A DNA stretch of 62,631 nucleotides, filler included, from Hausera hauseri (lineage: Eukaryota): assembly GCA_046269625.1 (NCBI GenBank). It is 10 parts of 10 records of this genome, joined end to end, with 100 filler letters (N's around TTAATTAATTAA, not from the genome) between each part and the next. Parts side by side here need not be neighbours in the genome. Positions count along the whole stretch, not along the records: positions 42,781 to 49,486 come from JBJURY010073439.1; 9 more parts are not named here. One strand, written 5' to 3'. The notes below the pieces were generated by a model, which saw nothing but the letters and a program-made list of their open reading frames with translations, had not been told where the DNA came from and did not search any database. Below, in pieces: positions 21,571 to 58,970 of this stretch; position 1 is the stretch's first letter; each line of letters opens with the position of its first letter. The translations under genes and the position numbers were made by a program.

Positions 21571-21930
21571 AATAATTAATTAAAATCAGAGGTGGGGGCT
21601 GAGACGGCTGGCGATGGTGTATCGCGGTGTAAATCACGATTTCGGCCAAACAACTATAATTCTAATGATAACGAATTCCATAGACTCGTGGAACAAATGT
21701 TATCAGAACAGATATGGCTTGTAACTATCAAATCGACGAAGAATAAATCGTAGCTAGGATTTATAAAGCAAGATGACCTTTCTCATGTAAATTGTGTAAA
21801 GTTTTCTTTATTTTGTGAACTTTATATGAGTTTTTTATTTTTTTGTTTAAAACGTTGTCAAGAAGATTGAATTTTGTAGACGTTAAAAAATAGAAATTAG
21901 AAATCGTGTTGAATCGATAATTTTCAAATT

Positions 21931-27900: not shown

Positions 27901-30900
27901 ATTTCAAGTCTATGCGATGATTCCGTAACAAATGATGATTTATCAGATATAAAAGACGCTGCTACAATGTTAAAAGAGATGAGTGACGCTCTAGCTAATT
28001 TGACACCTGAAGAATTAGAAAATAAGTTTTCTGAAGTGAGTTTAATGTACAAAACTGATCGGCCAACACTTGTAGATAGAACTTGTGATGCCAATACTAA
28101 ATGTAACAGAGCACTCCACAATGTCGAACAGGAATTTAATATATTAAGGCATTTAGTTAAAACTTTATCATCTACTGTGGACCAACCAACAGAATTAATG
28201 ACTCGAGTTAAGACATCCGTTAATGTTTTGGAAAAATGCGTACAATACTTATCGGCAAGATCAGAAATATTCGGTGCATCACAACAGATTAATTTGTTTG
28301 GAATTTATGAGGAAGAGATGAAAACGGCATCCATCTCGGACGTAATGCAAGAGTACAGTTTACGGATTACGAAACAAAGAGACGAAATGTTGAAATCATT
28401 GAATGAGGAGCTGACAATGTTATCTACAGAAGTGGCATTACGTCAGCAATTACGTCAGACAGAGGATGCAACGACAGCTGAGGATAGAGAAGTAGCATTA
28501 CGTCAGCAATTACGTCAGACAGAGGATGCATTGGCATGTGCAGATCAACAAATTGAGGAGTTGACAATGGCCAATGAGACATCCTTGCAGGAATTACGTA
28601 ATCAATTACGTCAGGTCGTTGGAGAACGTGATGAAATGTTCCATCGATTACAGGATACTGAAATGGAATTATTGGATAGTACAAAAAGTCTGTCGACATT
28701 ACAAAATGTGTTAGATAAATTTCAACAAGATCAGTCATCAGATATGGCCTTTGAACGAGTGGAAGAGCTTTTGAGAATGCAAACGGTTCTCTTTAGAACC
28801 ACATTTCTTGATTGCGACGGGGTATCAGATCCCCTTAAAAAATCTGTGACATTTGTTAAATTTGCAGTGAAAATTCGATACATATTAGACTACGATGGGA
28901 CGAGCTACAGATGTCATCACGGATTTCGTCGATGTTACGATAAAAACGCACTCTGCTTAGAAGACAAAGTCTTGTCAGTCAATGACGAAATAACATACGG
29001 GATTCCGCCTAAGCTGACTTCGGTATTGAGGACTGACACGGAGAACAAAATTCAATTTAGACCTAAGGAGCAAATTAATACTTCAAAGGTTAGAAATTGT
29101 ATCATTGTTATACATCGCCGCCGATCGTTTTTGTCCCTTTCCCGGGTCTTACGTCTGGATCAAAGAGATCATAAAAAACCCACTCGCGCATGTAAAGTTC
29201 ACGCGATTATTAAATTGATTGATATAATTGTTTCCTCATTAAAAGAATGTTCCACTTCATCTAGCTTGGAACCGTATAAAGTTGTTAAAGTTAATGTATA
29301 CATAAGTTTCTATATAGACGTATATCACGCCAGACCTGTACTAATACCGAGACAGATAATCGGAAAATTTGAAATCGAAAAAAGTAACCAATTATCTGTT
29401 GGGGGGTGTTCCTTGTTTAATAAAGGTTATAAAAATACTAAAATTAGAATCGAAATGAACATACGCCTTTTAACTGAGTGTACACGTATGCTTATGAACG
29501 TCTTAATACTCTTTAGTAATATTTTAAATTATAATAAAGATGACACTTATTTTAAGATATTACAAAACAAATTCCTCAATAGTCAGCGTACAAGTCATTT
29601 ATATGCTGACGATAAAATAATACTAGAAGAACGACCAATAAATCTTTCGAGAAAAATTCAATTACATGATATGGATAATCAAGTTACCAATGAAAAATCA
29701 CTAAAGATATCTAAGTTCATATTGGTAACACTGGATAAATTAAAAATAATACGTAGCATTAGAAATAAACTTCCGGAAATCACTACAGGTAAAGCAAGAA
29801 AAATAAATTATAGAAATAGTGTAGAAATTCGTCCACTACCTAATATGGATGTCGAGAACGTTAAAAAATTATCGGAAGTCAAGTATAAACAAATAATCAT
29901 AAAAATAAACCAGAACTCTCCTATAGTTGTTGACGTTGATGAAACTGAGTCCATTAATTCATTAAAGCAAAAAATATCAAAGAAATGTCACATAAAAATG
30001 GAGGAAATTGAGATCATTTACAAAAACAAGAAATGGAGGGACTATGAGACTTTACATAGAATCTCGCATGGGACGACCTTGAACATCAATTATGGATTGA
30101 AAGGAGGGAGCGCCGGTGAAATTGAGGACTTTGAAAGTAGAATTTTAGCAAAGGATGTACTGAGAGTTGAATTGACTATCCAGAGGAAGTCACTGATGAA
30201 TAAAAAATTGACAGAAGATGAGTTTCTGCAACAAAATGATAATTATGACGAAATCTTTAAAAAACTCTCCATTGAGCTCAGCACTTTGAAGCTACTCGCT
30301 AGAAAATTGAAGAAAAAGGAAGAATTAGCAGAACTAGTCGATGAATCAAAAAATATTGAGATACAAAATGAGGAAGTGATAAAGATGATTCACATGAAGA
30401 ATTTCACGACCTTAGAAAAAGGGAAGGAAAAAGAGACTTATAATGAATATTTAGCACCTAAGCTGAAACGTGTTGAACTCCCAAAATTCTGTGGAAATGT
30501 TGCTGAGTTTGAGAAATGGAAGCAGATCTTCAAAACATGTATAGATAAAACGTCCCTCTCCAGTACAGATAAGCAAATCCAACTAGAAAATTCCTTGTAC
30601 GGAGAAGCTAAACGTTTAGTCCAAAATTACGATCTTTCTGAAACATCCTACAAGGCAGCACTCGAAAAATTGGAACGATACTATGGGGGAAATCATAGAA
30701 ACTATGCATCCCTTATGTCGGAAGTTATGGGATTTCAAAAGATAAGCACACATAACATTAAAGAGTTGGATTCCTTCACCATATTGTTAGACTCAGTCAT
30801 TTTGAGGTTGAAGAATTTGAATCGAGAGACAGAGTTAGAAGATGGACTGTTGTATCAAAGCTTAATTCAGAAACTACCTGAAATTATGGTATTAACGTGG

Positions 30901-32274
30901 GAACGTTATCGAGAAGACAAAGATAAGAAGCGAAATGTGTATAATTTAAAGGCTTGGGTGGAGAAGGAAGCGGAACTAAAACGTATAGCGGCGGAAGGAG
31001 TTCATGGAATAAATGTTCTAACACTATACAGAGATAAACACTCCGAAAGACCGATAAAGAATTCCTTTTATACTAATGGGAAAGTAGAAAAACCTACACG
31101 AACAAACAAAATCGGAAGTAACACCAAAGAAGATAGAGGTAGGAGGAATGACAATTGTCAGGGAAATTTAGGAAGTCAGAAAAAACTCTGTAAATATTTT
31201 GAAATCGGTAAATGTCGTTTTGGTAATTCATGTACATTCCTACACGAGGAGAAAAATTATAAAAATACGAATCAAAAACCTTGTTCATATTTTTTAAGAG
31301 GGAGTTGTAGATACGGTAATAATTGTCGGTTTAAACATGAAAAAATCCCGGATATCAATAGACCAGAGATTGACTGTTCAGAAACTCTTGACAAAAATTT
31401 ACACAGAAATGAGATATCCAGAACTTCAATTGATATTGATAGGAATAAAACACTACCGAATGTGAATCATCGTCAAACAAAAGAGAGTGAATCCTCAGAA
31501 AAGCGAATCTTTATGACAAAAATGGGAAGTGAAGAACTCGGGACGCAAGATAAGGTAGCATTAAGAACAATTTCGGTATACTTAATTCATGGGAAAAGGA
31601 AAGTCAAGGTAAACATGTTATTAGACGATGCTAGTACAGATAGTTTCCTCGAGGAAGACATCATACAACAATTAGGACTTTGTGGAAGAGAAGAAGAGAT
31701 TACAGTAGCAGTGATCGGAGGTAGCCAACAGAAACAAAAAGCGACGAGAGTTAAAACGACCTTACAAAGTTTAGATGGTGGTATCTGTGAACAATTCAAT
31801 GCATTGTCTATAAGGAAGCCAACGGGAAATATGAAGGTTATCAATTGGGCTATAGAAAAGAAATATTGGTCTCATTTGCGAGGTATCGAATTTACAAAAA
31901 CGGGAACAAACGAGTACGTCGATGGAATTATTGGAGCGGATTATATACACCTCCATAGATCTATAAGAGAAGTTTCAGGTAAGATAGGGGGGCCGATAGC
32001 TAGATTGACACCCCTCGGTTGGACATGCGTTGGAACGCTAAACGTATCCGTAAATAAATTAACACGTAGTAATCTAGTACGTACTTACTGGACAAGAACA
32101 GATGAGATGAACGAAGATATAAGGAGGTTGTGGGAAGTTGAAAATTCAATTGAAGAAAAGGAAGCTTGGTCAAAATTAGACAAAGAAATTATACAAGTTA
32201 CAAAAAATGGGATAAAAAAGACGGAAGAAGGAAGATACGAGGTTTCTCTACCTTGGAAGGAGAACATGGATGAA
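21931..32274 (+). CDS. Mosaic ORF of over 3400 codons: host gene fragments fused to BEL/Pao Gag-PR (probably chimeric)
   Basis: Uninterrupted frame: FN3 repeats plus TM (~22471-24300), FN3/Ig (~25090-25560), calcium-binding EGF repeats (~25560-26380), Ser-rich and coiled-coil blocks (~26400-28750), then retroelement domains from ~29845. Low confidence that this is one real protein. Confidence 0.4.
22471..24680 (+). CDS. LAR/PTPR-type receptor fragment (FN3 repeats, TM, juxtamembrane; no PTP domain)
   Basis: VTLPEEKPTKPPRDI...SINLVWKSPDARFRNGKIIVYEI...YTNKGSGPWT; CSERNGNIKYYHLII; TM ITLSVTLSGILIAVISIITGCVV followed by HKRK. Confidence 0.7.
25561..26380 (+). CDS. Tandem calcium-binding EGF repeats (fibrillin/fibulin-like fragment)
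   Basis: Repeated D(I/V)DEC...C.NT.GSY.C.C units. Confidence 0.85.
27990..28400 (+). CDS. MRVI1/LRMP(IRAG)-like coiled-coil fragment
   Basis: LTPEELENKFSEVSLMYKTDRPTLVDR and LSARSEIFGA resemble the conserved MRVI1 domain as recalled. Confidence 0.55.
29845..32274 (+). mobile_element. BEL/Pao element C, intact 5' part: UBL(GG)-Gag-2xCCCH-protease; truncated by the spacer
   Basis: UBL 29884-30108 ending NYGLKGG; PKLKRVELPKFCGNVAEFEKWKQIF; CCCH pair 31189-31338; VNMLLDDASTDSF; GPIARLTPLGWTCVG; GRYEVSLPWK. Confidence 0.93.
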
Positions 32275-33627: not shown

Positions 33628-36487
33628 TTACTTCAACCGCCAATGTCCGTACGCCCAACTCTTATTCCGCCTCACCCACTTTTGCTTGTCATCGTTGCAT
33701 GACAAAGCAACCTTTGTATTTGTGACTGTATACAGCTGGTGCTCAATCGATCGTATGGTTGTTTGAGACGCAACAGCCTTTCCTCCTGCTCCTTCTTCTT
33801 TTCCATCATGGATGCGGCGATAATCACCGTGACTTAGTTCCATCTGTTTCAGCTGGATGCCTTTTGCCCGAATTTTTGGCCCACAGTCCATCAGAAGACT
33901 GTAGCACTTTGGGCGTGGAAATATCCATTCCCTGTACTTGATACGGCCTTCTCTTTTGTCTTTGAAACAGCCGATTTTGTTTGTTATCGCGCTGCTGTAC
34001 AGCGGATGATTCGACAAGTAGTTAGACGTGTCCAGTAGTCCATCTGCCATAATTTGTTGGAGCAACTGGTCCCGATCGATGTTTTTCAGCTCCGAGAAAA
34101 AGATATCTGTGTCACCGGCAACAATATTGATCTCACAGCCGTCGGCGAACATTTGCCGATAACGTGCCAAGTCGCGATACTGGAGCTCGTACATGTGCAA
34201 ATTTCTCAGGTCCAGTACTACTTGTCCGATGTAGCTTGGCCGGTCCAGTACTACTTCTTCCCTGTTGAGAAGCACGGCGACTAATCCGTCGGCAATGATC
34301 ATTGACCGCCTAAACTGAGCCTTGCTGGTGTACGTAACTAGCCGCTTTTCGTTGTTGCACAGGTGCACATTGAACCGCTTTTCGAGGTTCTCTACCGTTT
34401 TGTGTAAAGAAAATTATTTTTCAACTTGTAATAGTCCTTGTCGAACTTTGTACAAGCTGCGGCTCGTTTTCCGGAATTTCCATCGATGTACGCCTTGAAT
34501 ATCGGCGCCTGATTAAAGCGGATTGCACGATGCAACTGTGTGACGCGTACACCCAACTGCATGTAAAACTGAGGCAGATTCCAATGAACCACGTAATTCA
34601 GCTTCGGTTCATGCATCATGAGCAATTTCTTTACTATTGTTGAGCCGCCGGGCGGACATTGGCTGATTGGTGCCACGGGTAATTCGTCCAAAGCGTCATG
34701 CAGCTCATCGGGTACCACGAGATCGACTTCCATTAGGTAGCCGACTGCGCTGCTTTCTGTCATTATTGTTGCTGCTGCTGCTGTCAGACTGTCCATTAAT
34801 GCATCTAATTCTTGTTTTTCGACAACCCATTCAAATAAACCGTACGGCAAGGGTTGCGAAAGCGCCCAGCCATACAGGTTATTAATGTCGATGTACAACA
34901 TTGACGTGGTATCATCACTGGTTACGTGATGTTTGTTGACAAACGTCATGCCGTCACGAATGCCAACGTCAAACAAGCGGTACATTTCCAGGTCTTGCAG
35001 CAGCTTAATGTCCCGATCAAGTGACAGTAGAGCTGATGCCCAATTCACTCCCGGTATTGAGTAAAAGTTGAGCGGTCCCAACCTATCTTCCGCCAACGCC
35101 TTAGCACGAAATGCCGGAAACACCTCGGCCAGCAAGTACACATTCAGTTTCAGGTACTGGAGCATGTACTCCAACATGTTTCTGCAGCCGAGCTTTGCCC
35201 ACGCTTTCTGTACTCTGTGGTACTCGTTCTCTGTGATTCCAGCCCATTGTGGAAGGAATTCCTCTGTTATCTGAAGCCGCTCGTATAAAATAGCAAAGTC
35301 GTATGGGAATATGCCTTTGCTGAGTGCAATATGCGAGGGAAACTGCGTCAGCGTTATCGGCACATCCTGCAAAGCACTTACGAGCTTTCCTAGAGACTCA
35401 TTCAGGAAGTGCAATGAGTCAAGAAACCGTACCTGAAACCAGTTTATACGTGCCGATAGGGACAAATACTTCTCCATCGTTGTTGGAATTATGGATAATT
35501 TCCTGTGTTGAAATCCGCTGATGGCCCATTTTTAAATATGGTGACAGTCATAACCCCGGAAGTTGTGAAATATCACCGGTAGGAATGGCCGCACACGCCT
35601 TGCCAAATTGTATGCCTTGCATGCTGCTCCCAGCTATCGATCGGTGAAATGATCATGGTCCGGTACGAGCCGTCCCTGTGATTCGAACGGCAATATTTTG
35701 TGGTGGCACAAATAGCATTCATCCGTGATTGCAAACGTCAGGCGTTCATCTTCATCTGACCACATCAAGGGTTTATTGTTATTTCTACTGTAGCAGGGTG
35801 CGACTTCCGTTTCTATTATTGTTTCCAACTGATGCAGGAAATTGCGTACGCATTTCCAGCCATGAAAAATGTAATATTGCGGTTGACCTGCAGCTTTTAT
35901 TGGGACAAACAACACACCGATGACGATTGGAACATGTTTTTGGTCATATATGTTGTGCCGTGGTAAGATAGCTTTGATAGCGGCATATACAACGTATTTC
36001 GGACTGTCCGTTTTCGACCAGTCACCGAATCGGGCTACTTTTTGAGTGGCATTACGTACATGGTTGTTCCCGTTGAATTTTGTCTGCACAGAGTCACGTG
36101 TTTCTTCCATGTTGTCTCTGATCTGAATCTGTGCAGACACACGGGACACCATTTATACCGTATTTCCTTTTCAATGAACTGGTCATATTCCATGTTCAAC
36201 AGTCTGTCCAGATTTGCTACTGCAACGTAATGCAATTTTTACTTTTTTGCTCCAATAAAAACAAATTTATTGGGCAACCATTTGGGTTCCGACTACGGTA
36301 GATTATATCCACATGGGGGGTTTTGTAAATTTCTTTATCCGCCGGTATTTCTACGATTGTGTTGTATCGCAGCACATTTATTGCCAGTGTCGGATTACGC
36401 CGTTCAAATTTCGGAATGGATTTCAGTTTCATCGGCATCCAGCTTTCATCGAAATCCAATTCGGAAAAATATTTCTGATACTGTTTT
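33628..36487 (-). mobile_element. Polinton/Maverick-type protein-primed family B DNA polymerase, decayed (copy 1)
   Basis: Zn finger CPVCLHRF...H, endonuclease VII-like CYLC...DHDHFT, FHNFRGYDCH, FLDSLHFLNESL, KGIFPYD, YIDINNLYGWAL, KLKNNFLY, GDTD, PKCYSL, AKGI and YGHW. Confidence 0.92.
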
Positions 36488-36587: not shown

Positions 36588-39500
36588 AGAGAGGCAGAGA
36601 GACATAGATAGAGTTACAGAGCGGCAGAGAGACAGAGACAAAGAGAGGGAGACAGAGAGACACAGACACAGACACAGACCGAGACCGAGAGACAGAGACA
36701 GAGACAGAGACAGAGAGGCAGAGAGACATAGATAGAGTTACAGAGCGGCAGAGAGACAGAGACAAAGAGAGGGAGACAGAGAGACACATACACAGACACA
36801 GACCGAGACCGAGAGACACAGTCAGAGACATAGACCGAGACAGAGATAGAGATAGAGAGACAGAGACAGAGACAAAGACACAGAGAGACAGAGACAGGGA
36901 GACAGAGAGAGAGAGGCAGAGATACAGAGGCACAAAGATACAGAGAGAGACACAGGCAGAGACAGAGAGAGACAGAGAGACAAGGAGACAGAGAGTCAGA
37001 GATATAGAGACAGAAAGACAGATAGACAGATACAGAGTGACACACAGAGGGAGAGACACAGACACATACCGAGATAGAGAGACAAAGGCAGAGCCACACA
37101 CATACAGCGAGACAGAAACTGAGACAGAAAGAGAGAGAGGCAGAGGTAGAGAGAGACAGAGAGACAGAAAGACATAGGTAAAGATGCAGAGAGACAGAGA
37201 GACAGTGAAAGAGACAAACAGACACAGAGAGAGGGAAAGNNNNNNNNNNNNNNNNNNNNNNNNNNNNNNNNNNNNNNNNNNNNNNNNNNNNNNNNNNNNN
37301 NNNNNNNNNNNNNNNNNNNNNNNNNNNNNNNNNNNNNNNNNNNNNNNNNNNNNNNNNNNNNNNNNNNNNNNNNNNNNNNNNNNNNNNNNNNNNNNNNNNN
37401 NNNNNNNNNNNNNNNNNNNNNNNNNNNNNNNNNNNNNNNNNNNNNNNNNNNNNNNNNNNNNNNNNNNNNNNNNNNNNNNNNNNNNNNNNNNNNNNNNNNN
37501 GACAGACATAGAGAAACAGATTGACAGATAGGCGGAGACAGAGAGACATATACAGAGAAATAGAAATGCAGACACAGACCGAGACAGAGAGACAGCGACA
37601 TAGACAGACAGACAGATAGACAGTGTCGGAGACAGACACAGGGACAGAGACAGAAAGATAGAGACACAGAGAGACAGAAAGACAGAAACAGAGATACAGA
37701 GGCACAGAGACACAGAGAGAGACACAGACAGAGACAAAGAGATACAGAGAGACAAGGAGACAGGACGACAGAGAGACAGAGAGTCAGAGATATAGAGACA
37801 GAAAGACAGATAGACAGAGACAGAGTGACACACAGAGGGAGAGACACAGACACATACCGAGATAGAGAGACAAAGGCAGAGTCACAGAGAGACTGAGAGA
37901 CAAACCGAGACAGAGAGACTGAGACAGAAAGACAAAGAGACAGAGACAGAAACAGAGAGAGACAGAGAGACAGAGAGGCAGAGGTAAAGATGCATAGAGA
38001 CAGAGAGGGAAAAACAGGGAGACGGAGTCAGAGACAGAGAGACAGATACAGAAACAGAGAGACAGGGACAGAGAGGCAGAGAGAGACAGAGACAGAGACA
38101 CACGGAGAGACAGAGAGACAGAGAGACAGAGAGACAGCGACAGCGAGACAGATAGGCAGAGAGACAGAAATAGAGAGACAGGGAGACAGAGAGAGACAGA
38201 GACAGGGACAGAGAGCGACAGAAAGACAGAGAGGCAGAGGAAAAATACAGAGTGACCGATAGACAGAGACAGAGAGACACAGACAGAGAGAGAGATTCAG
38301 ACACAGACCGAGACAGAGAGACAAAAACAGAGTCACAATCACATACAAAGACCGAGACACATAGACAGGGACAAAGAGACAGAGAGAAAGTAACACACAG
38401 ACACAGACAGAGACAGAGAGACAGAGTCAGAAAGACAGAGAGACAGAGAGACATAGAGACAGAGGCAGAGAAAGACAGAGAGACAGAGAAGCAGAGGTAA
38501 AGATACAGAGATACAGAGAGACAGACACAGAGAGAGACAGAGAGATAACAACAGAGACAGAGACACAGACACAGTCCGAGACAGAGACAGCGACATAGAC
38601 AGACAGACAGAGAGACAGTGTCGGATACAGACACAAAGACAGAGACAGAGAGATAGAGACAGAGGAATAGAGACACAGAGAGACAGAAAGACAGAGAGAC
38701 AGAGATACAGAGGCACAGAGATACAGAGAGAGACACAGACAGAGACAGACAGAGACAGAGAGACAGAGGCATAGAGAGACAGAGAGAGAGAAAGGCGGGG
38801 GTAGAGAGACAGAGGGACATAGACACACAGACAGAGACAGAGAGAGGGACAGACACAGAACGAAACAGAGAGACAAAGACAGAGACGCAGACACAGACAC
38901 AGACCGAGAAAGAAAGACAGAGACAGAGATACAGACATAGAGACAATGAGACAGAGAAATAAAGACACAGAGAGAGAGAGGCAGAGACATAGACAGAAAG
39001 AAACAGGGAGAGAGAGACATAGACAGAGATACAGAGACAGAAACAGAGAGACAGAGAGACAGCAGCAGAGAGACAGAGAGGCAGAGAGACAGAGACAGAG
39101 ACATAGACAGAGAGACAGAGACATTAAGAAAGTGAGATAGAGAAAACGAGGCACAGAGATACAGAGAGAGAAACAGAAAGACACAAAGAGATAGAGACAG
39201 GGAGACAGAGACAGAGAGACAGAGAGGCAAAGAGACAGAGACAGAGACATAGACAGAGAGGCAGAGACATTTAGAAAGTGAGACAGAGAGAACGAGGCAC
39301 AGAGATACAGAGAGAGACACAGAACGAAACACAGAGATAAAGACAGAGTCACAGTCACATACACAGACCGAGACAGAGATACACGGACATAAAGACAGAG
39401 AGACAGAGAGATAGAGACAGAGACAGAAAGACAGAGAGACAGGGACAGAGAGAGAGTCAGGGAGACAGAGACAGAGAGATAGGGACAGACACAGACCGAG

Positions 39501-42500
39501 ACAGGGAGACAAGAGCAGAGACACAGACACAGACACAGACCGAGACAGACAGACAGAGACAGAGACAGAAAGACAGAGAAACAGAGACAGAGAGTCATAG
39601 ACATAGAGAGAGAGAAACAGACAGAGAAATAGAGAGACAGAGAGGCATAGACAGAGAGAAAGACAAAGAGGCAAAAACATAGAGAGACAGAGACAGATAC
39701 AAATACAGATAGAGACAAAGAGACAGATAGAAAGGGAGACAGAGCGACAGAGCGACAGAGATAGAGAGACAGAGAGCCAGATAGACAGAGACAGAGAGAC
39801 GTATCGAGGGAGAGACACAGACACAGACCGAGATAAAGAGACGAAGACAGAGTCACACACACAGAGCGAGACAGAGAGACAAAGACATAAAGACATAGAG
39901 ACATAGAGACATAGAGACAGAGAGACAGAGAAACAGAAGCAGCGGGAGACAGAGAGGCATAGAGACAAAGGTAGAGATTCAGAGGGACAGAGACAGAAAG
40001 ACACAGACAGATAGAGAGGGACAGACACAGACCGAAACAGAGAGACAAAGAGTTGGACACGGAAATAGACACAGACCGAGACATAGAGACAGAGACAGAT
40101 AACTTGTCAGAGACAGAGACAGAGACAGAGCGACATAGACAGAAAGACAAAGACATTGAGAAAGTGAGACAGAGAGATCGAGGCACAGAGATACAGAGAG
40201 AGACACAGACAGAGACAGGGAGAGAGAGAAAGAAAGATAGAGAGGCAGAAATAGACAGAGAGAGAGAGACACACAGAGAGAGAGAGGGACAGACACAGCC
40301 CAAGACAGAGAGAAAAAGACAGAGACACCGACACACNNNNNNNNNNNNNNNNNNNNNNNNNNNNNNNNNNNNNNNNNNNNNNNNNNNNNNNNNNNNNNNN
40401 NNNNNNNNNNNNNNNNNNNNNNNNNNNNNNNNNNNNNNNNNNNNNNNNNNNNNNNNNNNNNNNNNNNNNNNGACAGATAGACAGATAGACAGAGACAGAG
40501 ACAGGTGCAGAGACAGATGCAGAGAAACAGAAACAGAAAGACAGAAGACATAGAAACATAGAGGCAGAGAGACAGAGACAGACAGAAACAGATAGGCAGA
40601 GACAGACAGAGACGGAGAAACACAGACATAGAGAGAGAGGGACAGACACAGACCAAGACAGAGAGACAAAGACACAGACACAGACACAGACACAAACACA
40701 GACCGAAACAGAGAGACAGAGACANNNNNNNNNNNNNNNNNNNNNNNNNNNNNNNNNNNNNNNNNNNNNNNNNNNNNNNNNNNNNNNNNNNNNNNNNNNN
40801 NNNNNNNNNNNNNNNNNNNNNNNNNNNNNNNNNNNNNNNNNNNNNNNNNNNNNNNNNNNNNNNNNNNNNNNNNNNNNNNNNNNNNNNNNNNAGAGAGGCA
40901 GATGTAGAGAGACAGAGAGACATAGAGACAGAGACAGAGAGACAGATACAGAGAGAGAGACAGACACAGATCGAGATAGAGAGACAAAGACACAGACAGA
41001 GACACAGACATAGACCGAGAAAGAAAGACAGAGACAGAAACAAAGACAGAGAGACAGAGATACAGAGATACAGAGACCGAGAGAGAGACAGACAAAGGCA
41101 GCGACAGAGACAGGGAGACAGGGAATCAGGGATACAGACAAAGAGACAGACAGAGATAGAGAGACAGAGAGAGAGATACACAGAGACAGAAAAACACAGA
41201 CAGAGAGAGAGAGACACAGACGCAGACTGAGACGGAGAGACAAAGATCGAGTCAGAGACACATACACAGACCTAGACAGCGACACAGAGACAGAGAGACA
41301 GATACAGGGAGAGAGGGACAGACACAGACCGAGANNNNNNNNNNNNNNNNNNNNNNNNNNNNNNNNNNNNNNNNNNNNNNNNNNNNNNNNNNNNNNNNNN
41401 NNNNNNNNNNNNNNNNNNNNNNNNNNNNNNNNNNNNNNNNNNNNNNNNNNNNNNNNNNNNNNNNNNNNNNNNNNNNNNNNNNNNNNNNNNNNNNNNNNNN
41501 NNNNNNNNNNNNNNNNNNNNNNNNNNNNNNNNNNNNNNNNNNNNNNNNNNNNNNNNNNNNGACAGATAGACAGAGACAAAGAGATGCAGAGAGGGAGAGA
41601 TACAGACACAGACCGAGATAAAGAGACGAAGACAGAGTCACACACAAACAAAGCAAGACAGAAAGACAGAGACATAAAGACAGAGAGACATGGAGACAGA
41701 GAGACAGAGGCAGAGAGAGACAGAGAGGCCGAGGTAGAGATTTAGAGGGACAGAGACACAGAGACACAGACAGATAGAGAGGGACAGACACAGACCGAGA
41801 CAGAGAGACAAAGAGAGGGACACAGACACAGACCGAGATATACAGAGAGACAGATACCAAATCAGAGACCGAGACAGAGACAGAGCGACATAGACAGAAA
41901 GACAGAGACATTGAGAGAGTGAGACAGAGAGAACGNNNNNNNNNNNNNNNNNNNNNNNNNNNNNNNNNNNNNNNNNNNNNNNNNNNNNNNNNNNNNNNNN
42001 NNNNNNNNNNNNNNNNNNNNNNNNNNNNNNNNNNNNNNNNNNNNNNNNNNNNNNNNNNNNNNNNNNNNNACAGTCCGAGACAAAGAGAAAAAGACATAGA
42101 CACAGACACACACACAGACGAGACAGAAAGACAGAGACAGAGACAGGGACAGAGATTGACAGAGATACAGAGAGACAGGGAGACAGATCGACAGAAACAG
42201 AGACAGATGCAGAGACAGATGCAGAGAGACAGAGACAGAAAAACAGAGAGACAAAGATCCAGGGTAATAGAGGCAGAGAGAGACAAAGAGGCAGAGAGGC
42301 AGATGTAGAGAGACAAAGAGACAGAGACAAAGAGACACAGACAGAGAGAGGGACAAACACAGACTTAGATATAGAGACAAATGCACAGACACATACAGAG
42401 ACCTAGACAGAGAGACAGATACAGAGACAGAGGGACTGACACAGACCGACACAGAGAGACAAAGGCAGAGACACCGACACAGACACAGACACAGACCGAG

Positions 42501-42680
42501 ACAGACAGACAGAGAGACAGAGATAGACAGAGAGAGAGTCAGAGACATAGACAGAGAGAGACAGAGACAGATACAGAGAGCGACAGATAGACAGAGAGAC
42601 AGGGAGACAGAGAGACAGAGATAGAGAGACAGAGAGACAGATAGACAAAGGCAGAGAAACGCAGAGAGGGAGAGACACAG
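36588..42680. repeat. Degenerate purine-rich simple repeat (GACAGA/GA/GACA units) with internal N gaps
   Basis: Whole contig consists of AGAC/AG/ACAG permutations and is nearly T-free on the plus strand. Confidence 0.97.
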
Positions 42681-42780: not shown

Positions 42781-45700
42781 GGAGGGAAGAAAAGCAATAA
42801 GAAAATAATTGAGACGGAGGTTGGATCAAGAGAAACATCAACAGAAAGGGAAGAGGTAACAGAAGAAAGAAAAAGAGGAAGAAAGAAGAGTAATCTCAGC
42901 ACACCTTCACCCTCATTTAATCCAGAAGAGACTCAAGCCACGCCCATTTTCGACGATACTATATTGGACCAAGTAATAAGGAATCCAGAAGTAGATTTAG
43001 ATGCGGAAGATGACCTTATTCAAGCAGTAGTTGCGATAGATCCTGAAAATGTCATAAATGTAAACGAAGCAACGAGTACAATATTAAAGTTAATAGACAG
43101 CAAGGTATCCATAGATAAGATAAACGAAATACTGTTTCAGTTATTATTACTGGCCCACGACACGAGCCCGATAAGAGACATAGTACGGACAATATTGGCC
43201 AAAGCAGCCGAAGGGGAGAAAGGAAGAAACGAGACGGTAAGGATAACATTAAAAGAAGGAAACCAGGATATAAGGGTTATAAGAATGAACGAGATGGACG
43301 ATGTATTAGCATTACGTGAGAAGATTGGAGAACTAGAACCGTTTTATAAGGAAAAGATATATGGATTAAATTTTTATGGCAGAACATTATACAGCTATGA
43401 TAGCTTGTTACGGGTAGGATGTAGGAGCGAAAACTACAACCCGATTATGATAACAGATATCCATCCGGAGGCAAGAGCAGAAGAAACCATAGAAAATATA
43501 ATAAGGGAAGCAGAACTAAGAGAGGTTGAGGAACAACCATCAGGAGGTGCACACGACGTCACAGTGCAAACAGACGCCCGAAGAAGAGGAAGGCCGAAAG
43601 GAACCAGGATAAGTGATATCCGAAATAAGAAAGACCGAAACGAGGAAATAGTACGACGTCTACTGTTAGCAGGTACAGATACGACACCGGAATCAGTAGA
43701 CATAGATCCACTGCTAAGGACGCTGTTAGCTAAATTACACACGTCATTCGCTTCATTTGATATGCAGACGGTAATTCCTGACGACTTATTCCAGACGCTA
43801 CGTAATGGAATGTTAAAAATCAGTAGACAGTTCTACGAAAACATCGGTGAAGAAAGAATTAATGAACTGCATGAGCAGGACATATTGGAAAAGATGTTCG
43901 CAACAGGAATTACGCGAGAAAAAGTACGGACGGCTATAGCTTATTTATTATATAAAATAATTGTGATAAATCACCAAACTCAAAATTTAGAGGAAATTGA
44001 AAGAAATATCAAAGCAGCAATAAAGGTCTTGAAAGATACACTAGAAAATTGGGTTCAGTGTAGAGGTGGTTGGTTGGCAAGTCTCACGAAAAACGTAAGA
44101 ACGGAGGAAGGACAAACGGAATTACCACCACCATCGAACGTACACACAACAAGACAAGGCATAACAGGAATGACGATGATGGAGATTCTCCAATTAATTT
44201 TAGTAACATCACTGTTGATGCCAAAGGCCATGGGAATAGTAGCATACGATTGTTCAAAACCAAAGGAAGGACAGAAATATTCGTTAGTTGATTTAGAGAA
44301 ATGCCCTGAAGCTGACCCAGAACAATTAACGACGACTAGTGGTCATAGATACTGGGTCTACCAAGAATCCGAATTCATAAAAGTTAAAATCAGGGAATGT
44401 TACGTAAAGAAGTCTTTCTTTTTGTTCAACTGCGCATATTACTCGGGTAACTCGGCTATAATTGAGCCAACGACACCATTTGAGCCGATAATAATATCGC
44501 GCGCTGAATGTCAAGACGCCTTTAAAATCGGCGTAATAACAATACAAAATGCACAGATACCAGCTGTAAGGAATAAGATAAAATATACCCGAATCTTTAG
44601 AGCTGGAAGAATAGATAAGACAATGGAAGGCACGTGTAAAGGAGTGGACTATGATGTAGGAGGTACAATAGCGCCAAGGACAGTGGCGATTGAAGATTAT
44701 CAAGTCCAACTAAAGGAATACGAAGGTTTGTTTGACTCACAAACTAAACTTATGACGATAATGAATGAATGCGAGTACGAAAGTGGTGAATGCGATACCG
44801 GCGAATCCAAAATGACGTGGGAAGTGTCTATAAATAGATGTCACTTAACCCTACTAAAGGAAGGAAAGTTTAATAAAACTGTAGGAAAGACAGCCGAGAA
44901 AGACACCACAACGTATAAAAAAGGCGTTAAAGAGTTAAAAATGACAGAAGTTGCCACAATAGTTTACTCAGAAAATCCTGAAGAAATGATGCGATTTAAG
45001 ATCACGGGAACAACAAACAAATGTGACGAAGAGATATCTAAAACTAATTATAAAGGAATTTATCTCTCACCAAGAGAAATAACGCAAGCCAAGACGAAGA
45101 TAGACAAAAAGGATATAAAAATAACACAATATTTCGATAACAAAATTGACTTTCTGATCAATTATGTTAGAAAAGAGATAAGAAGTTTATATAGAGAGAT
45201 AATAATGAATGAGTGTAAGTTGAACTACGAAATTATTCGAAACAAGATGGCATTAGTAATAACAAACCCTAACATGGTAGCACCAGTAGTGCCATTTAGA
45301 GATGGAGTAATTGGAAGAGTAATGTGTGAGGTACTCATTACTATCGAATGTAAGAAAGTGGAAGTAACAATAAAAACAACGGACGAATGTACGTCAGAAC
45401 TACCTGTAATTTACCATACAGAACCTAGATACGTCATGCCCGTAACTAGAATACTACTAGATGCTAACGTAAAACCAATTCGGTTGGATAACTGTACTTT
45501 TAATATGGCACCTATGTTTAAACTAGATGAGAAGAAGTGGATTAGGATGCCCAAGAGAGAAACCGTGCCGAAACCAGAAACGTTAAGTTTGATAAACTTA
45601 CAGAGGAACCAGTACTTCGAGCCACTCACCGGAATATCTCAAGGAGGAATTTACACACAGCAGAACTTAGAAGATTACCGACGTATGTTGCTATTTCCCC

Positions 45701-46185
45701 AACAAAGACAAAGGATAATAACGGAATTAACAAGAAGAGTAATGTGGGATGGTGAAGGTTCGCCACAATGGGAAAATTTAATGGGAAAAGATTATTTTAA
45801 AAAAGTTACGCGGAACATCATGGAGAAGATGTGGGGAAAACTTTTGTATTTTGGACAAGCAGCCTCGGGATTTCTCGCTATATACTTTATCATTAGCGCA
45901 CTAAGAACTATATTTACGGCCCTTAGTAAAGCATATGGCATACATGCAGCAGTAGGCTGTTCTTGGAAGATTCTAATAGCAGTAATACCGGCCGTAGCTA
46001 GTTGTTTTCTAGCAAAACATAATGCGCAATGGAAAAAGAAAATATTTACAGAAAGAAACGAAAAGAATTCGCTATATAGCAATATAAAGGACAAGAACGA
46101 TGACAATGATGATCCGGAGATTAAGCTAAAAAGCAATAAATATATGAAGAGTTGGAGAAGTCCCTCATTAAAACCACGAAACTAA
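42781..46185 (+). CDS. Retroelement ORF (5' partial): UBL, AT-hook, Bcl-2-like domain, chuvirus-type class III fusion glycoprotein
   Basis: Frame open to the contig edge. Internal signal MEILQLILVTSLLMPKAMG|IVAYDC (44170-44253); Cys-rich ectodomain with ECKLNYEIIRNKMAL, CEVLITIECKKVEV, CTSELPV, MPVTRIL and GIYT; hydrophobic anchors ~45841-46014. Confidence 0.85.
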   Translation, partial: GGKKSNKKIIETEVGSRETSTEREEVTEERKRGRKKSNLSTPSPSFNPEETQATPIFDDTILDQVIRNPEVDLDAEDDLIQAVVAIDPENVINVNEATSTILKLIDSKVSIDKINEILFQLLLLAHDTSPIRDIVRTILAKAAEGEKGRNETVRITLKEGNQDIRVIRMNEMDDVLALREKIGELEPFYKEKIYGLNFYGRTLYSYDSLLRVGCRSENYNPIMITDIHPEARAEETIENIIREAELREVEEQPSGGAHDVTVQTDARRRGRPKGTRISDIRNKKDRNEEIVRRLLLAGTDTTPESVDIDPLLRTLLAKLHTSFASFDMQTVIPDDLFQTLRNGMLKISRQFYENIGEERINELHEQDILEKMFATGITREKVRTAIAYLLYKIIVINHQTQNLEEIERNIKAAIKVLKDTLENWVQCRGGWLASLTKNVRTEEGQTELPPPSNVHTTRQGITGMTMMEILQLILVTSLLMPKAMGIVAYDCSKPKEGQKYSLVDLEKCPEADPEQLTTTSGHRYWVYQESEFIKVKIRECYVKKSFFLFNCAYYSGNSAIIEPTTPFEPIIISRAECQDAFKIGVITIQNAQIPAVRNKIKYTRIFRAGRIDKTMEGTCKGVDYDVGGTIAPRTVAIEDYQVQLKEYEGLFDSQTKLMTIMNECEYESGECDTGESKMTWEVSINRCHLTLLKEGKFNKTVGKTAEKDTTTYKKGVKELKMTEVATIVYSENPEEMMRFKITGTTNKCDEEISKTNYKGIYLSPREITQAKTKIDKKDIKITQYFDNKIDFLINYVRKEIRSLYREIIMNECKLNYEIIRNKMALVITNPNMVAPVVPFRDGVIGRVMCEVLITIECKKVEVTIKTTDECTSELPVIYHTEPRYVMPVTRILLDANVKPIRLDNCTFNMAPMFKLDEKKWIRMPKRETVPKPETLSLINLQRNQYFEPLTGISQGGIYTQQNLEDYRRMLLFPQQRQRIITELTRRVMWDGEGSPQWENLMGKDYFKKVTRNIMEKMWGKLLYFGQAASGFLAIYFIISALRTIFTALSKAYGIHAAVGCSWKILIAVIPAVASCFLAKHNAQWKKKIFTERNEKNSLYSNIKDKNDDNDDPEIKLKSNKYMKSWRSPSLKPRN

Positions 46186-49100
46186 AAATATATATCGAGG
46201 TTAGTAACAGACTTACCGCAAGAAAACCTAGACGATGAATATCACGGACAAGGTTATAATGGGCAAATGATAACGAATCCATCAGCTCCCCAATATTCAA
46301 AACGTGAAGAAATCTACCCCATGTATCAAGTATTACAAATGAAACAAAATTATGATGAAAACCGTCACCATGAACCAACTTGTAAAACGACGGATAAGAA
46401 CGAGGCACAACCACCGTTAAGACCAGAGATAAATATAGAAGTAAACGGATACCCATTGATAGCTTTAGTGGATACAGGATCTACGACTACTATCATGGGG
46501 GAAGATCAGTTACCTAAAGAATTAAGAAGAAAGTTAAGGAAACCAAGTACGACACTGATTAATGTGGGAGCGTTTGGCATGGAAGAGGAAATAAAAAAAG
46601 TATTGGATGCAAAAATTAAGATTGGCAACCAAATAATAAACCATACTATTAGAGTAGCCAAAAATTTGACTAACGATATACTGATTGGATGTGACGTATT
46701 AAATCAGTTAGAGAACGCTTATATTGATTTAAAGACAAGTCAATTAAAAACCTTCAACAAGGAACAACATAAAGGATCAGTTTCGCTAATACAAGATGTT
46801 ACAATCCCACCACGCTCCGAAATAATAGTACCCGGTCGAATAGAAAATAGACTACTCGCCACATACATATACTTTGAACCCTTCTCACAAACAATGGAAA
46901 AGTATAATATAATTATTGCTCCACACGTAGATAAAGTGAGAAATGGAAAGATTCACTTACGAATTTGCAACGCTGGAAATAACGAAAAACGACTAAAGGA
47001 AAACACAAGGTTGGGAGAAGTAATGGAGATCGAAGAAATACAAAAAGAGGAAATTAATTCAGTTATATCAGATGTAGATAAGATAGAAAAGATGATGAAA
47101 GAGAAACTGAGGAAGGAAACAAATGAAGATAAGGGAAATACAAAGAGGACGAAAATTAATTGGGAAGAAAAATTAGGGGATTGCGAAATATTAACCAAGG
47201 ACGAAAAAAGAATGCTAATTCAACTACTGGAAAAGAACAATGAAAGATTTGCCCAAAATGACTATGACTTAGGTACGATGAAGGTAATACAACACACCAT
47301 CAAGTTAAAAAAAGGACAAGATAAACCAATTAAGAAACGACCATACCGCTTAGCGTATGATAAAAAGCAAGAAGCTCAAAAAATTATAGAGGAAATGAGA
47401 GAAAATAAGATAATTCGACCGAGTTGCTCACCATGGACAGCGCCTGTAGTGATGGTCAAGAAGAAAGACGGAGCCATGAGATTCTGTATAGATTATAGAG
47501 CCTTAAACGAAATAACTGAAACTGATACTTATCCGCTGCCAAGAATTGACGAAATATTGGACAAATTACATGGATCAACAATATTTACCACTATTGACCT
47601 ACAAAAAGGGTATTGGCAAGTAGAAGTAAAGGAAGAAGATAAGCCCAAGACCGCCTTTTCGATAGGCGAAGGATTATGGGAATTCAATAGAATGCCGTTT
47701 GGACTAAAGAATGGACCACCAAGGTTTCAAAGAGAAACTGAATTATTACTATTAGACGCACCACATGCCATGGTCTATATCGATGACGTCATAATAGCAT
47801 CATCAGACTTCCAACAGCATTTAAAAGATTTGCAAGACCTCTTTGATAGATGCGAAATCATGGGTTTAAAAATAAACCCAAAGAAATGTTCATTCGCCCG
47901 AGTAGAAGTCGATTTCCTTGGACACCGAGTTGATAGACACGGCGTGAAACCGCAAGATAGTCTTTTAGGGAAGATAAAAGATTTCCCTAAACCAACTACA
48001 GTAAATGAACTACGCCGATTCCTAGGCTTAGCGAATTATTATCGAAGATTTATAAAAGATTTCAGCAAAATAGCCAAACCTCTATATCAGTTACTTCGTG
48101 AAGATCTAGAAAAAGTGGTATGGACAGTCGACTGCCAAAGAACTTTTGAGGAATTAAAAGAAAGACTATTGAACGCTCCGATCTTAATTTACCCCGACAT
48201 GACTAAGCCGTTTATATTGGCAACTGACGCAAGTGACTATGGAGTAGGAGCAGTACTATCCCAAAAAGGTGAGGACGGGAAAGAACATCCAGTGGCTTAT
48301 GCTTCTAGAAAATTAAATAAACATCAAAGGAATTATGCGGTTATCGAAAAAGAATTATTAGCCGTAATATTTGCATTAGAAGTATTCTCACCATACATCA
48401 GTGAAAATAAACCCTTGCTTGTATACACAGATCATCGTACCCTACAATGGCTGAAGCAACATGAAAATCCGAATAGCCGATTACTACGATGGGCTCTTAA
48501 GTTACAACGCTATACGTTAAATTTTCAGTTTAAACCAGGAACATGGAATGCGAACGCAGATTATTTATCAAGAATGCCAGAAGCATCAAAGATAAAAAAG
48601 GAAGTAGTTGCTGCAGTATCGAGTATGGATGGGTCCATAAAAAAAATAAAGCAAAATCAACGAGAAGATACAGAAATAAAAGCAATTAGAAATTTTATAC
48701 AAAATAAAATATTGCCATCAAACAAGGAGTTAGCTAGACATTTAGCTCGATTCAGTGAAACTTACGAAGAAAAAGATGGGTTTTTGTATTACATCTATCA
48801 AAATGGACCAACATTAGTAATCCCACAGAAAAATAGAAGTGTTCTGTTAAAACAATATCACGATGGATTACTGGGAGGTCACCAGTCAGCGAGAAAAACG
48901 ATAAATAAATAAAAGGGGAAGTATTTTTGACCCACCGTAGCAATGGACGTGCAAGAATGGTGTGATAGTTGTACACTTTGCGCCACTCTTAAAAATACTG
49001 GATCAAAATTTAAAGCCCCCTCAAAGTATGAGATAATTTACCAGCTCCGTTTGAATTCACAGCGATGGATATAACATGACCCTTACTATTAACGCGAAAT

Positions 49101-53832: not shown

Positions 53833-56288
53833 ATGGACAGCAGCTGCAGAAGCATCCTGTCAACAACAACAACCAGTAGAAAACGTCAGGCCTCAACAAG
53901 TCTTGACGACTTAATCAGAAACAGTACCCAGCAGCAGCAGCAGCAGCAGCAGGAACAGGAACAGCATCAACAAGAACAGGAAGCCAGTATTCCCAACATT
54001 ACAGTCAAGTACGATCTGAACAGAACGTACGTGGACATAAAGGTGGCCATGTCAGCGAAAACAGCAACGCAATGGAAGGATGTACCCGCTCATGTGCGTA
54101 ACCGGTTGGAAACAGAGGTGGTCAAATTCCAACACCACCACCACTGCAAAGTACAATATTATGCACTTGCAGAATTTAAAAATTTAGAAGGTGACAGGAA
54201 ACAATGGTACCTGTCACATCGAGCCGTACCGTATTCCAAAGATTTTATTGCCGACGTAGGCAAGAAGCTCGAGGAGAAAATCGCCAACTACACTGAAAAG
54301 GGTAGTGGATGCAAATTATAAAAACTGTCACTCTCGGCTTTGTCATAACAAAGTCGAGTGATATAATTTACCTGTCCAGGCAATCATTCATACCGACACC
54401 TGCAGCTCTAAAGCAGTCTCTGACGGTGGTGAATGTGCAAAACAAGAACGATGAATACTGGTTTCTTTACAGTATTCTGGCCATATTAACATATGACAAA
54501 GTGGAGAGAAAACATGCTAATCGTCCAAATCAGTATCGACAGTATTTTTTCGAATTGGATTTCGATGAAAGCTAGATGCCAATAAAACTAAAAACCATTC
54601 CGACGTTTGAAAAGCGTAATTCGACGCTGTCAATCAACGTTTTCCGGTATAACTCAATAGTTGAAATACCGAAATCCAAACGGACGCCCAGTAAATGTGT
54701 TACCGTTGGAGCGGGCAGAAAAGTATCATTACGTGGCTGTAAAAAATTTGGATAGATTGCTGAATATGGATCATGATCAGTTTATCAAAAAACAAATACG
54801 ATGCAAATGGCGTATTTGCACGGCTTTAGATCACAAACTACATGGGAAAAGCATGTGACATTTTGCAGACAAAGTGCAATAGGAACAACAATGTATGTCA
54901 TGCCAGTAAAAAAGGAGCCGAGGTTCAGTAACTGGTCGAAGACTGACAGTCCGGCATACGTTGTATATGCTGATATTGAGGAAATCCTACCATAGTGCAA
55001 CGAATATGATCAAAAACATATTCCAATTGCCGTCCGAATGCTGGTTGTCCCAATAAAAGCTGCAGGTAAACCGCAATATTATGCGTTTCATGGCTGGAAC
55101 TGTGTACGCGATTTCCTGCATCAGTTGGAAACAATAGTAGAAAATGAAGTCGCACCCTGGTGCAGTTGAAATAGCAATGAACCCTTGGTGTGGACAGATG
55201 AATATGAACCACTGATGTTTGCAGCCACCGATTAACGTTACCTGGGCCACAAAATATTACCGTTCAATGCACTGGAACGTTTCATACCGGATCATGATCA
55301 GTTTACCGGTCGATACTTGGGAGCTTCATGCAATTCATGCAACTTGCCAAGGCGTGTGCGACCATTCCTACCGGTGATTTTTCATAACTTCAGGAGTTAT
55401 GATTGTCACCATATTTTGAAGTGGGCAGTAAACGGATTTCCGCACTGGGAACTGTCCATAATTCTGACTACAATGGAGAAATATCTGTCATTGTCTGCTG
55501 GTATAAACCGGTTCCAGATACGCCTCCTCGACTCACTGCAATTTCTCGATGAATCATTAGCAAGGCTGGTGAATGCCTTGCCAGATGTGCCGTTAACAAT
55601 GACTCAGTTCTCTGTACACATTGCGTGTAACAAAGGTATATTTCCTTATGACCTTGCTATATTGTACGAGCGGCTCCAGATGACAAACGAATTACCACGC
55701 AACATCCCGGTATCACAGAAGAAGAATATCACAAAGCACAATCATTTTGAGCAGAGATGGGTTGCAGAAACCTGTTGGACTACATGCTTCAGTATCTGAA
55801 ATTGGACAAGGACCTTTTAGCTGATGTGTTTCAGATATTTCGAGCTAAAATGTTGGCAGAAGATAGGCTGGAGCCACTCAACTTTTACTCAATACGCGGA
55901 ATGAGTTTGGCATCAGCTTCGATGTCACTGGATCGGGATATCGAGCTATTGCAAGACCCGCAAATGTACCGAATGTTTGATGTTGGTATTCGTGGCTGTA
56001 TGGCATTTGTCAACATGCATAATGTAGCCAGTGATGATACCACATCACTGTTGTATATCGATATTAATAACCTGTACGGCTAGGCGCTTTCACAACCCTT
56101 GCCGTACGGTTCATTCGAATGAATAGTTGACAACCAGGACCCGGGCACAATACTGGAAAATCTGTCGAGAGCAGACACGACAACAGCAGAAAACAGATCA
56201 ATCGGATACCTGATGGAAGTCGATCTCGTGGTACCAGATGTGCTGCATGACTTTCTGGATGAACTGCCGGTGGCACCAATCAGCCAAT
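53833..56288 (+). mobile_element. Polinton/Maverick-type pPolB, decayed (copy 2), truncated after motif A
   Basis: Collinear with copy 1: VVNVQNKNDEYWFLYSILA, DHDQFTGRYLGASCNSCNL, FHNFRSYDCH, KGIFPYD, YIDINNLYG and MEVDLVVPD. Confidence 0.92.
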
Positions 56289-56797
56289 ATACGCTAGACT
56301 TGAAGGGGAAAAAGCTGCTTAAAGCGATATTTAAAGTTTCCGAATCAGGTACAGGTGGGTACATTAAAATTGAACTGGCTAAGGATATTGTCGACATTTC
56401 ATTTGACAAAGCTTTGGCCATGGTATTGGGTTTCGAAAAATAACGGATTGAGGCATCAAATACGAAGACGGCGGTACATGTTGCAACATTTAAACCAAAA
56501 CTGAAAACTGGACTAAGTCAAATGTACATTTATGTGAATGTCACCGAACCGATTGTGGTCGGCGGAGTACGTCTATCGCTACTTCGTGCAATTTATCCGG
56601 AAAGCAGCAAGTATACTGCTTGCGGCAATGTCACTGTCAAGTTCGATAATCCAATGTACCTAATTGTGACAACTACATCTATAAACAATGCTGAAGTCAA
56701 TATCCGACGTGACGCGAGCTACCTTACTGAATTTCCGTACGGTACCACAACCTCTCAAACTCTTCATTTCCATCGAATCCAACAACAACATGATTGA
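56289..56797 (+). pseudogene. Polinton minor capsid (penton) C-terminal part
   Basis: LAMVLGF...MYIYVNVTEPIVVGGVRLSLLRAI...FDNPMY...INNAEVNIR...TLHFHR. Confidence 0.75.
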
Positions 56798-57897: not shown

Positions 57898-58812
57898 AGA
57901 ATTGTGGCCAGTTTGTTCACATCTTCTGCAAACTAGAGGTGTACCATTTCGGTTAACATCAACACGTCCTTGTTGTTGATATTGATTAGACGAATTACTC
58001 TTATTCTTATTCCAATTTTTACCAGAATTATTGTTTTTTGTGTATGAACTATTATTTGAATTATTTTGATTATTTTGTTTTTGTTGGGATCTATTTTGGC
58101 TTTGTTGCTGATTATCATTTTGAGGTTTATTCTGATTTTGCTGTTGATTTTGCTGTTGATTTTGCTGTTGGTTATTTGGATTTTGATTGTTAAATCTTTG
58201 GTTAGGTTTAGAGAATCGTTCGTCTTTATAAGGACCTACATAAGCTTCAAGATTCTGTGCTTCACGCACTGCTTCGTTGAATGTTAGGCAGTTTCTTTTT
58301 AAGATGTCTGTTTTGATGTCTTTTCTGACACCTTTCAAGAATTGGGTTAATAGATGAATATCTATTTCGACTTTCAAGTCATCTTCTTTTGCGTTAGGGT
58401 TTTTAATCAATATTTGGGTCTTAACGGTGTTTGCATAATTTTTTACTAGTTCTGATAGGGCATAAGAATACTGAGTAACAGTTTCGCCAGATTGTTGAAA
58501 TCTTTTTTGTAAGATGGCTAGTTGAGCTGTTGGGGTTACTGTTGGCATTAAGCGTTTAATCAGAGCAGAAGTTAACTTATCCCAATCAGCTTTTTCATCA
58601 GGAGTTATTTCCTGGAAGACATCAAGAGCTACTTCATCTAAGTAAAGGGGCATTCTGCGGATAGAGGCTTGCTGATCAACGCCTAATCCTTCGCTTAATA
58701 AGCGATAGGTTTTCAAAAACTTTAGTAAACCGGCAGGATCGCCATTATATTTTGGAATATTTAAAGGCTCATGAATAGTCAAATTAATTGGTTGTTGTGG
58801 GGCTTGTGCCAT
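57898..58812 (-). CDS. Ty3/Gypsy Gag (capsid, Q/N-rich linker, CCHC knuckle truncated by the spacer)
   Basis: IPKYNGDP, WDKLTSALIKRL, QQSGETVTQYSYAL, QFLKGVRKDIK, TFNEAVREAQNLE and CRRCEQTGH. Confidence 0.9.
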
Positions 58813-58970
58813 TTCGTCTTGTAAGTCTGGATCTATTAAATCAAGATTTAAGGGCTCTAGTTCTATTACTAGGTCTTTAAGTTCTAAATTTTGTGTGGAG
58901 TCGACAGTCGTACGTTTATTAGGATTTTTTCTAGGTATGTTTGTGTTTTAATTTTAACTTTAAGAGACAA

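Follow-up and report, generated by a model that had tools for sequence, protein, structure and literature searches.

The window, the 62,631-nucleotide stretch of Hausera hauseri DNA analysed here, consists of short contigs strung together with N-linkers. On its contig at 42781-49486 lies what is, by identity and architecture, almost certainly a compact Burro-like Ty3/gypsy gag-env-pol retrotransposon bearing a Bcl-2-like accessory. The accessory is encoded at 43699-44085 on the plus strand, where a stop-free translation yields a 129-aa block. This block is a Bcl-2-fold domain, the fold being predicted from sequence comparison and modelling, and it is under purifying selection. The features of the contig are as follows.

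42784..46185 (+): ORF1, gag-accessory-env polyprotein; 1133-aa open frame, 5' end lost at the contig edge (42781)
42997..43215 (+): small all-helical domain, family unnamed; AlphaFold pLDDT about 70-82
43231..43455 (+): ubiquitin-like domain (Ubl); a 4-row profile matches UHRF1 Ubl (E 2.5e-4), then ubiquitin, ubiquilin and RAD23 Ubl
43585..43599 (+): RGRPK basic motif, in the linker preceding the Bcl-2-like domain
43699..44085 (+): Bcl-2-like domain; helix 1, helices at the BH3 position (43786-43836), degenerate BH1 (43882-43947), conserved BH2 (44041-44079)
44170..44235 (+): internal Env signal sequence; hydropathy 1.96 over 15 aa, 23 aa upstream of the YDC motif
44236..46185 (+): Env, class III (mononegavirus/chuvirus-like, 'HSV/gB-type') fusion glycoprotein; Pfam Monjiviricetes_fusion, E 3.7e-87
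46183..46185 (+): stop ending ORF1, in frame with pol
46186..48912 (+): pol, by Pfam; the contig ends at 49486
46420-46713 (+): protease (PR), by Pfam
46783-47028 (+): dUTPase-like, weak (Pfam E 0.037; PDB dUTPase E 0.12), top match in both searches
47455-47931 (+): RT, by Pfam
48121-48513 (+): RNase H, by Pfam
up to 48912 (+): integrase (IN), start only; in this copy a stop (48910-48912) falls inside the integrase zinc-binding domain

The element thus reads helical domain, Ubl, Bcl-2-like domain, signal peptide, Env, PR, dUTPase-like, RT, RNase H and IN. Its PR-RT-RNase H-IN series and its class III Env upstream of pol are those of a GAG-ENV-POL errantivirus of the Ty3/gypsy group (Metaviridae), and its pol is 34-41% identical to four matches with the same domain order. 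Gag and zinc knuckle are missing from ORF1 of the window copy, which is cut at its 5' end; the relatives P0003 and P0089 have both, their capsid and CCHC knuckle being in frame with the accessory domains downstream. The helical domain (42997..43215), for which a Pfam search gave no match, is also present in P0003, P0089 and P0013 and was found independently in P0006 (E 8e-14), always N-terminal of the Ubl. The latter shows a beta-beta-alpha-beta pattern in a model of low pLDDT, and Pfam matches to ubiquitin were obtained in P0089 (E 0.0046) and P0003 (E 0.031). The RGRPK motif, which we take to be AT-hook-like, belongs to a motif class found in 6 of 17 proteins checked, including P0006-P0008, which have no Bcl-2-like domain. 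Signal and YDC motif have the same geometry in all 22 proteins checked; signal-peptidase cleavage would occur just upstream of IVAYDC. Env ends in C-terminal hydrophobic segments, as seen by hydropathy.

A preliminary description of this DNA had proposed a Bcl-2-like domain inside an LTR-retroelement polyprotein, directly ahead of the Env signal peptide, and both the domain and its position were borne out. In the Pfam search of the window, Bcl-2 (PF00452) was the best of the four families listed for the block (E 2.8e-4), with 21.8 bits against a curated cut-off of 31.4. A single-sequence search of the PDB gave four weak matches, BOK, Bcl-2/Bcl-xL and BAX among them, the best being BOK at E 0.31. 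The helical-Ubl-Bcl2-Env stretch was then searched against 1.84 billion representatives, which returned 115 matches, ten of them with a Bcl-2-like domain ahead of the Env start (P0003, P0004, P0005, P0013, P0024, P0026, P0031, P0036, P0089 and P0093). These relatives show 13-51% identity in alignment A2, and six of the ten have a Pfam Bcl-2 match of their own, with E from 8e-5 to 0.055, all below the curated cut-off. When the window and its ten relatives were combined in an 11-row profile, Bcl-xL was matched in the PDB at E 7.3e-6, and all 60 among the matches listed were Bcl-xL/Bcl-2. These sequence matches, by Pfam as by profile, span BH1-BH2 only.

Structure prediction pointed in the same direction. 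AlphaFold, run on the 11-row alignment, gave a 7-helix bundle surrounding a hydrophobic central helix (pLDDT 81.9, pTM 0.78; other models 60.6-71.9). When this model was submitted to Foldseek, 42 of 42 among the matches listed belonged to the Bcl-2 family, BAK and BOK included, with probability 1.00 and TM 0.48-0.61 over about 140 columns; the best E-value was 3.3e-3 (none reached 0.001 or below), and the rmsd was 4.5-8 A. A second, longer model led to the same Bcl-2-family result. In the BFVD fold search, viral Bcl-2 proteins topped the named matches, non-canonical viral Bcl-2 folds being among them.

Three BH motifs had been proposed, of which the BH1-like and BH2-like ones stand and the BH3-like one does not. 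BH2 is the best kept: [WY]-x4-GGW occurs in 8 of 11 rows, with a single substitution in the remaining three. P0036, chosen partly for its W-x4-GGW motif, counts toward these rows. Shuffling of the ORF produced W-x4-GGW in 3 of 5000 trials. In BH1, the loss of NWGR that had been noted earlier is family-wide: none of 10 rows has its Trp or Gly, while the basic residue (Lys/Arg) is retained in all ten and a helix-capping residue (S/T/D/N) is found in nine. The corresponding segment is GITWGKV in BOK and GITREKV in the window domain. A canonical BH3 motif contains Gly-Asp. None of the seven rows that span the BH3 position has it; the candidate BH3-like motif was therefore rejected, as it is merely a helix at that position, unconserved in these seven rows. 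The domain is thus a Bcl-2-fold protein, not a canonical multi-BH Bcl-2 protein.

The occurrence of the domain among relatives was examined by running its profile across all 118 stored proteins. Only the carriers and one cluster mate (P0118) scored, and no match to the profile was found in 11 close Env relatives that have 143-891 aa ahead of Env. P0006 has both the basic linker motif and the helical+Ubl module (E 8e-14), but its signal sequence follows directly, with no Bcl-2-like domain between. Since close relatives are without it, the domain is an accessory and not a core part of the element. The carriers, of which P0003 is the closest relative (49% over the searched region), are distributed patchily on the Env tree, in which gain and loss are not separated. 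In every carrier with Env sequence, the domain flanks the Env signal on the side facing the cytosol. The signal h-region lies 24-56 aa past BH2 in the 11 carriers and is also present in 11 of 11 Env relatives without the domain. The preliminary description had suggested the Env signal peptide as a possible membrane anchor of the domain; its hydrophobic stretch is a signal h-region of the usual Env kind, much the same whether or not the domain is present, and shows no sign of shaping for it.

Several other arrangements were observed in related sequences. L001 (61-4266) is a related element with Gag, helical+Ubl module and Bcl-2-like domain, in which an in-frame stop (3058-3060) precedes the same-frame signal and Env; this stop may represent either decay or a split of gag-Bcl2 from env. 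P0005-P0008 and P0041 have at least two protease domains between Env and RT. In P0028, a mitochondrial ribosomal protein L47 domain is fused N-terminal to this Env type, as a host-gene capture or a chimeric gene call.

Sister copies were collected as contigs from two public runs (X1 and X2) that align to ORF1 at a likeness of at least 80%, numbering 11,790 and 1,700. Most are less than 95% alike, so that the family is multi-copy and diverged, depth giving no copy number. Variable sites of the domain were defined as those varying in at least 30% of depth, 40 of the 45 such sites being listed. Among the 40 listed, 30 are third codon positions (p 8e-8). Of the 35 transitions among these, 30 are silent, against 134 of 387 sites at which a transition would be silent, and no indel within the domain was listed among the sister copies at 30% of depth or more. 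The selection check called for by the preliminary description thus gave a pN/pS of about 0.09 (Fisher p 9e-11), which, together with the third-position bias, indicates that the domain is constrained at the amino-acid level.

In the stop that ends ORF1 (46183-46185), the third base differs in 97% (X1) and 100% (X2) of sister depth and the codon remains a stop, in a comparison drawn from 40 of 1186 differences listed, which leaves room for partial change at the other two bases. The env-pol stop is apparently common to the sister copies and family-wide. Nine relatives continue from Env into PR with no stop, and a search near the env-pol stop for a structure that could drive read-through found none. 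This stop is a candidate control of pol by read-through or re-initiation.

The preliminary description knew of no Bcl-2 protein in an LTR retroelement, but there is a precedent: a BCL2-like motif has been published in Burro, a giant Ty3/gypsy element of planarians, between Ubi2/SUMO-like and mononegavirus-like env (PMC6431247). Burro is there described as carrying Gag with CCHC, MATH, BIR, ankyrin, Ubi2/SUMO-like, BCL2-like, an in-frame mononegavirus-like env, PR, dUTPase-like and RT (Arkhipova and Yushenova 2019, PMC6431247). The present element resembles Burro/GYPSM1 in its Gag CCHC (in P0003 and P0089), Ubl, BCL2-like domain, mononegavirus-like Env between gag and pol, PR, RT, RNase H and IN, and a weak dUTPase-like match falls at the Burro position between PR and RT. 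It differs in size, ORF1 being about 1,450 aa here (P0003 plus P0002) versus 4,873-5,140 aa in Burro, and in that env and pol are parted by a stop, whereas Burro is one uninterrupted frame. No Pfam match to BIR, ankyrin or MATH was found in P0003 or P0089 from Gag to the domain, the window copy being cut in its 5' part. The comparison with Burro is with its published description, and the window contig has no LTR. The element is not filed as Burro itself, because it lacks the single frame through pol, and its size, cargo and RT placement leave the assignment unsettled. It nevertheless works like Burro and has the Burro layout, and is a compact relative of it, not a new phenomenon. BURRO1 is reported to be transcribed and piRNA-controlled (PMC8532177).

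GAG-ENV-POL errantiviruses of the HSV/gB type have been described in Platyhelminthes, Bryozoa and Nematoda (Chary and Hayashi 2026, PMC13524379), and share both gene order and Env type with the window element. As judged by eye, the window Env has far more motifs in common with the six Schmidtea rows (Smed_errantivirus_1-6) in supplement 2 of that paper than with its nematode rows. Accessory domains are left untreated in its main text, in which 'Bcl', 'ubiquitin', 'Burro' and 'dUTPase' have 0 occurrences. Viral folds of the Bcl-2 type that lack canonical motifs, as surveyed in PMC5691641 (myxoma M11L, vaccinia F1L and A46/A52/B14/K7), likewise combine a viral Bcl-2 fold with loss of the NWGR and BH3 signatures. 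In large DNA viruses, however, each such protein has its own gene and its own tail anchor, whereas here the fold belongs to the polyprotein of a reverse-transcribing element and BH2 is kept.

Other sequences of the window were also recorded. Neighbouring genes, which encode TPR-ankyrin and AAA proteins and EGF/FN3 domains, mark the host as an animal. At 21913-32274 (+), one frame runs for 3,450 aa without a stop; it comprises FN3, a TM segment, Ig, EGF-Ca repeats, coiled coils, a ubiquitin-like domain and a BEL/Pao gag (DUF1759, CCCH fingers, protease), and looks like stacked intron-free pieces of host genes or a chimeric assembly. At 57898-58947 (-) lies a gypsy Gag that is 31% identical to the P0003 Gag (E 3e-20) and cut at the zinc knuckle by the contig end; upstream of it, a 579-aa frame at 60890-62629 (-) has no Pfam match and a faint exonuclease hint (E 1.2). 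Together they may represent the 5' portion of a related element that has an accessory ORF upstream. A broken, Polinton-like type-B DNA polymerase (PF03175, E 1.3e-10) is located at 33628-35531 (-); some 20 kb from it, a different contig has an inverted copy of it at 76-81% (54527-56294). The scaffold at 36588-42680 is a long GA microsatellite, rich in purines and interrupted by five N gaps.

As to function, the most likely reading, to which we give about an even chance, is that the Bcl-2-like domain is a pro-survival factor for the particle-making cell. The polyprotein would enter the ER through its internal signal sequence, and signal peptidase would free Env into the lumen, leaving the Bcl-2-like domain in the cytosol. 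Because of this topology, with the domain upstream of an internal signal, the signal h-region may hold it on the ER until it is cut by the element protease or by a host protease. There it would take up in its groove the BH3 helices of host proteins, whether BAK/BAX/BOK-type or BH3-only, and such capture may damp the cell death that Env load, reverse transcription and integration provoke. Homology and predicted fold, the amino-acid constraint, the retention of the domain across diverged relatives and the lack of a BH3 motif of its own are in favour of this reading. The preliminary description had allowed that BH3 binding may be lost along with NWGR, but the basic residue of BH1 is retained in all ten rows; in a solved complex, this residue of NWGR forms a salt bridge with the Asp of BH3, which has been called a hallmark of pro-survival complexes (PMC5691656). 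Myxoma M11L binds BAK/BAX through its groove with no sequence similarity to Bcl-2 (PMC5691641), which indicates that canonical motifs are not needed. The IAP cargo of Burro1 protects stem cells from apoptosis, as reported second-hand in PMC13465017, so that the element group is known to gain from blocked cell death. Against the pro-survival reading stand the loss of the BH1 Trp and Gly in all ten rows, the Pfam score under the cut-off, the Foldseek E-values and rmsd, the signal h-region that is not particular to carriers, the varying linker length, and the eleven close Env relatives without the domain. In the account given in PMC5691656, mouse Boo, in which SWSQ replaces NWGR, has no pro-apoptotic binding partner, and B14, A52 and K7 of poxviruses are described in PMC5691641 as Bcl-2 folds that act in signalling instead of binding pro-apoptotic proteins.

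Such proteins, together with vaccinia A46, are the model for a reading that we hold to be possible though doubtful, in which the fold would serve not as a BH3 sink but as a binding scaffold against innate/stress signalling or autophagy, the Ubl linking targets to the ubiquitin-proteasome system. These uses are established for poxvirus Bcl-2 folds (PMC5691641). No row covering these positions retains the Trp or Gly of NWGR or a BH3 motif, and the domain travels with a Ubl, as a scaffold would allow, but BH2 and the basic BH1 residue are retained, apoptosis regulators of cells and viruses are the best matches in structure, and the Ubl module also exists without the Bcl-2-like domain (P0006). It is rather improbable that the domain is a structural part of the particle, that is, a membrane-binding, matrix-like linker on the Gag side that precedes the Env signal and couples capsid and envelope at the ER. 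Its cytosolic placement in every carrier with Env sequence, the amino-acid constraint and the helical bundle with its hydrophobic central helix agree with such a linker, whereas relatives of the same gag-env-pol layout do without the domain and the linker to the signal is variable.

The absence of a BH3 motif argues against a killer role, since effectors need BH3 for oligomerisation. A domain that promotes membrane permeabilisation or death in the manner of BOK/BAK, for instance for particle release, is accordingly very improbable: BOK is the best single-sequence PDB match (with GITWGKV aligned to GITREKV) and BAK and BOK are among the fold matches, but the BOK match at E 0.31 is not significant and the family profile favours Bcl-xL. 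That the domain is a piece of captured host sequence in decay, or resembles Bcl-2 by chance, and has no function, is scarcely credible and largely refuted. Its Pfam score under the cut-off and its patchiness on the Env tree could be read in that way, yet the pN/pS of 0.09, its retention across diverged elements and the confident predicted fold all speak against it.

The pro-survival reading can be extended to the family. We tentatively suggest that a compact env-bearing lineage, possibly outside planarians, carries a working vBcl-2 with a new type of groove (Trp/Gly gone, Lys/Arg kept), tethered to the ER by the Env signal peptide, as its sole anti-death cargo, and with pol expressed by read-through of the family-wide stop. 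If true, this would be the first functional vBcl-2 of a reverse-transcribing element, and one not accompanied by the IAP that confounds Burro. In the literature searched, the BCL2-like domain of Burro is in print only as a domain annotation and the Burro cargo that has been tested is the IAP. The compact family goes further, with a structure prediction, evidence that the domain is under selection, a BH1 signature found throughout the family, and relatives without the domain. Being small and clean, it is suited to testing whether a functional mimic of Bcl-2 is encoded by retrotransposons as it is by large DNA viruses, and also whether an internal Env signal sequence may double as a membrane tether.
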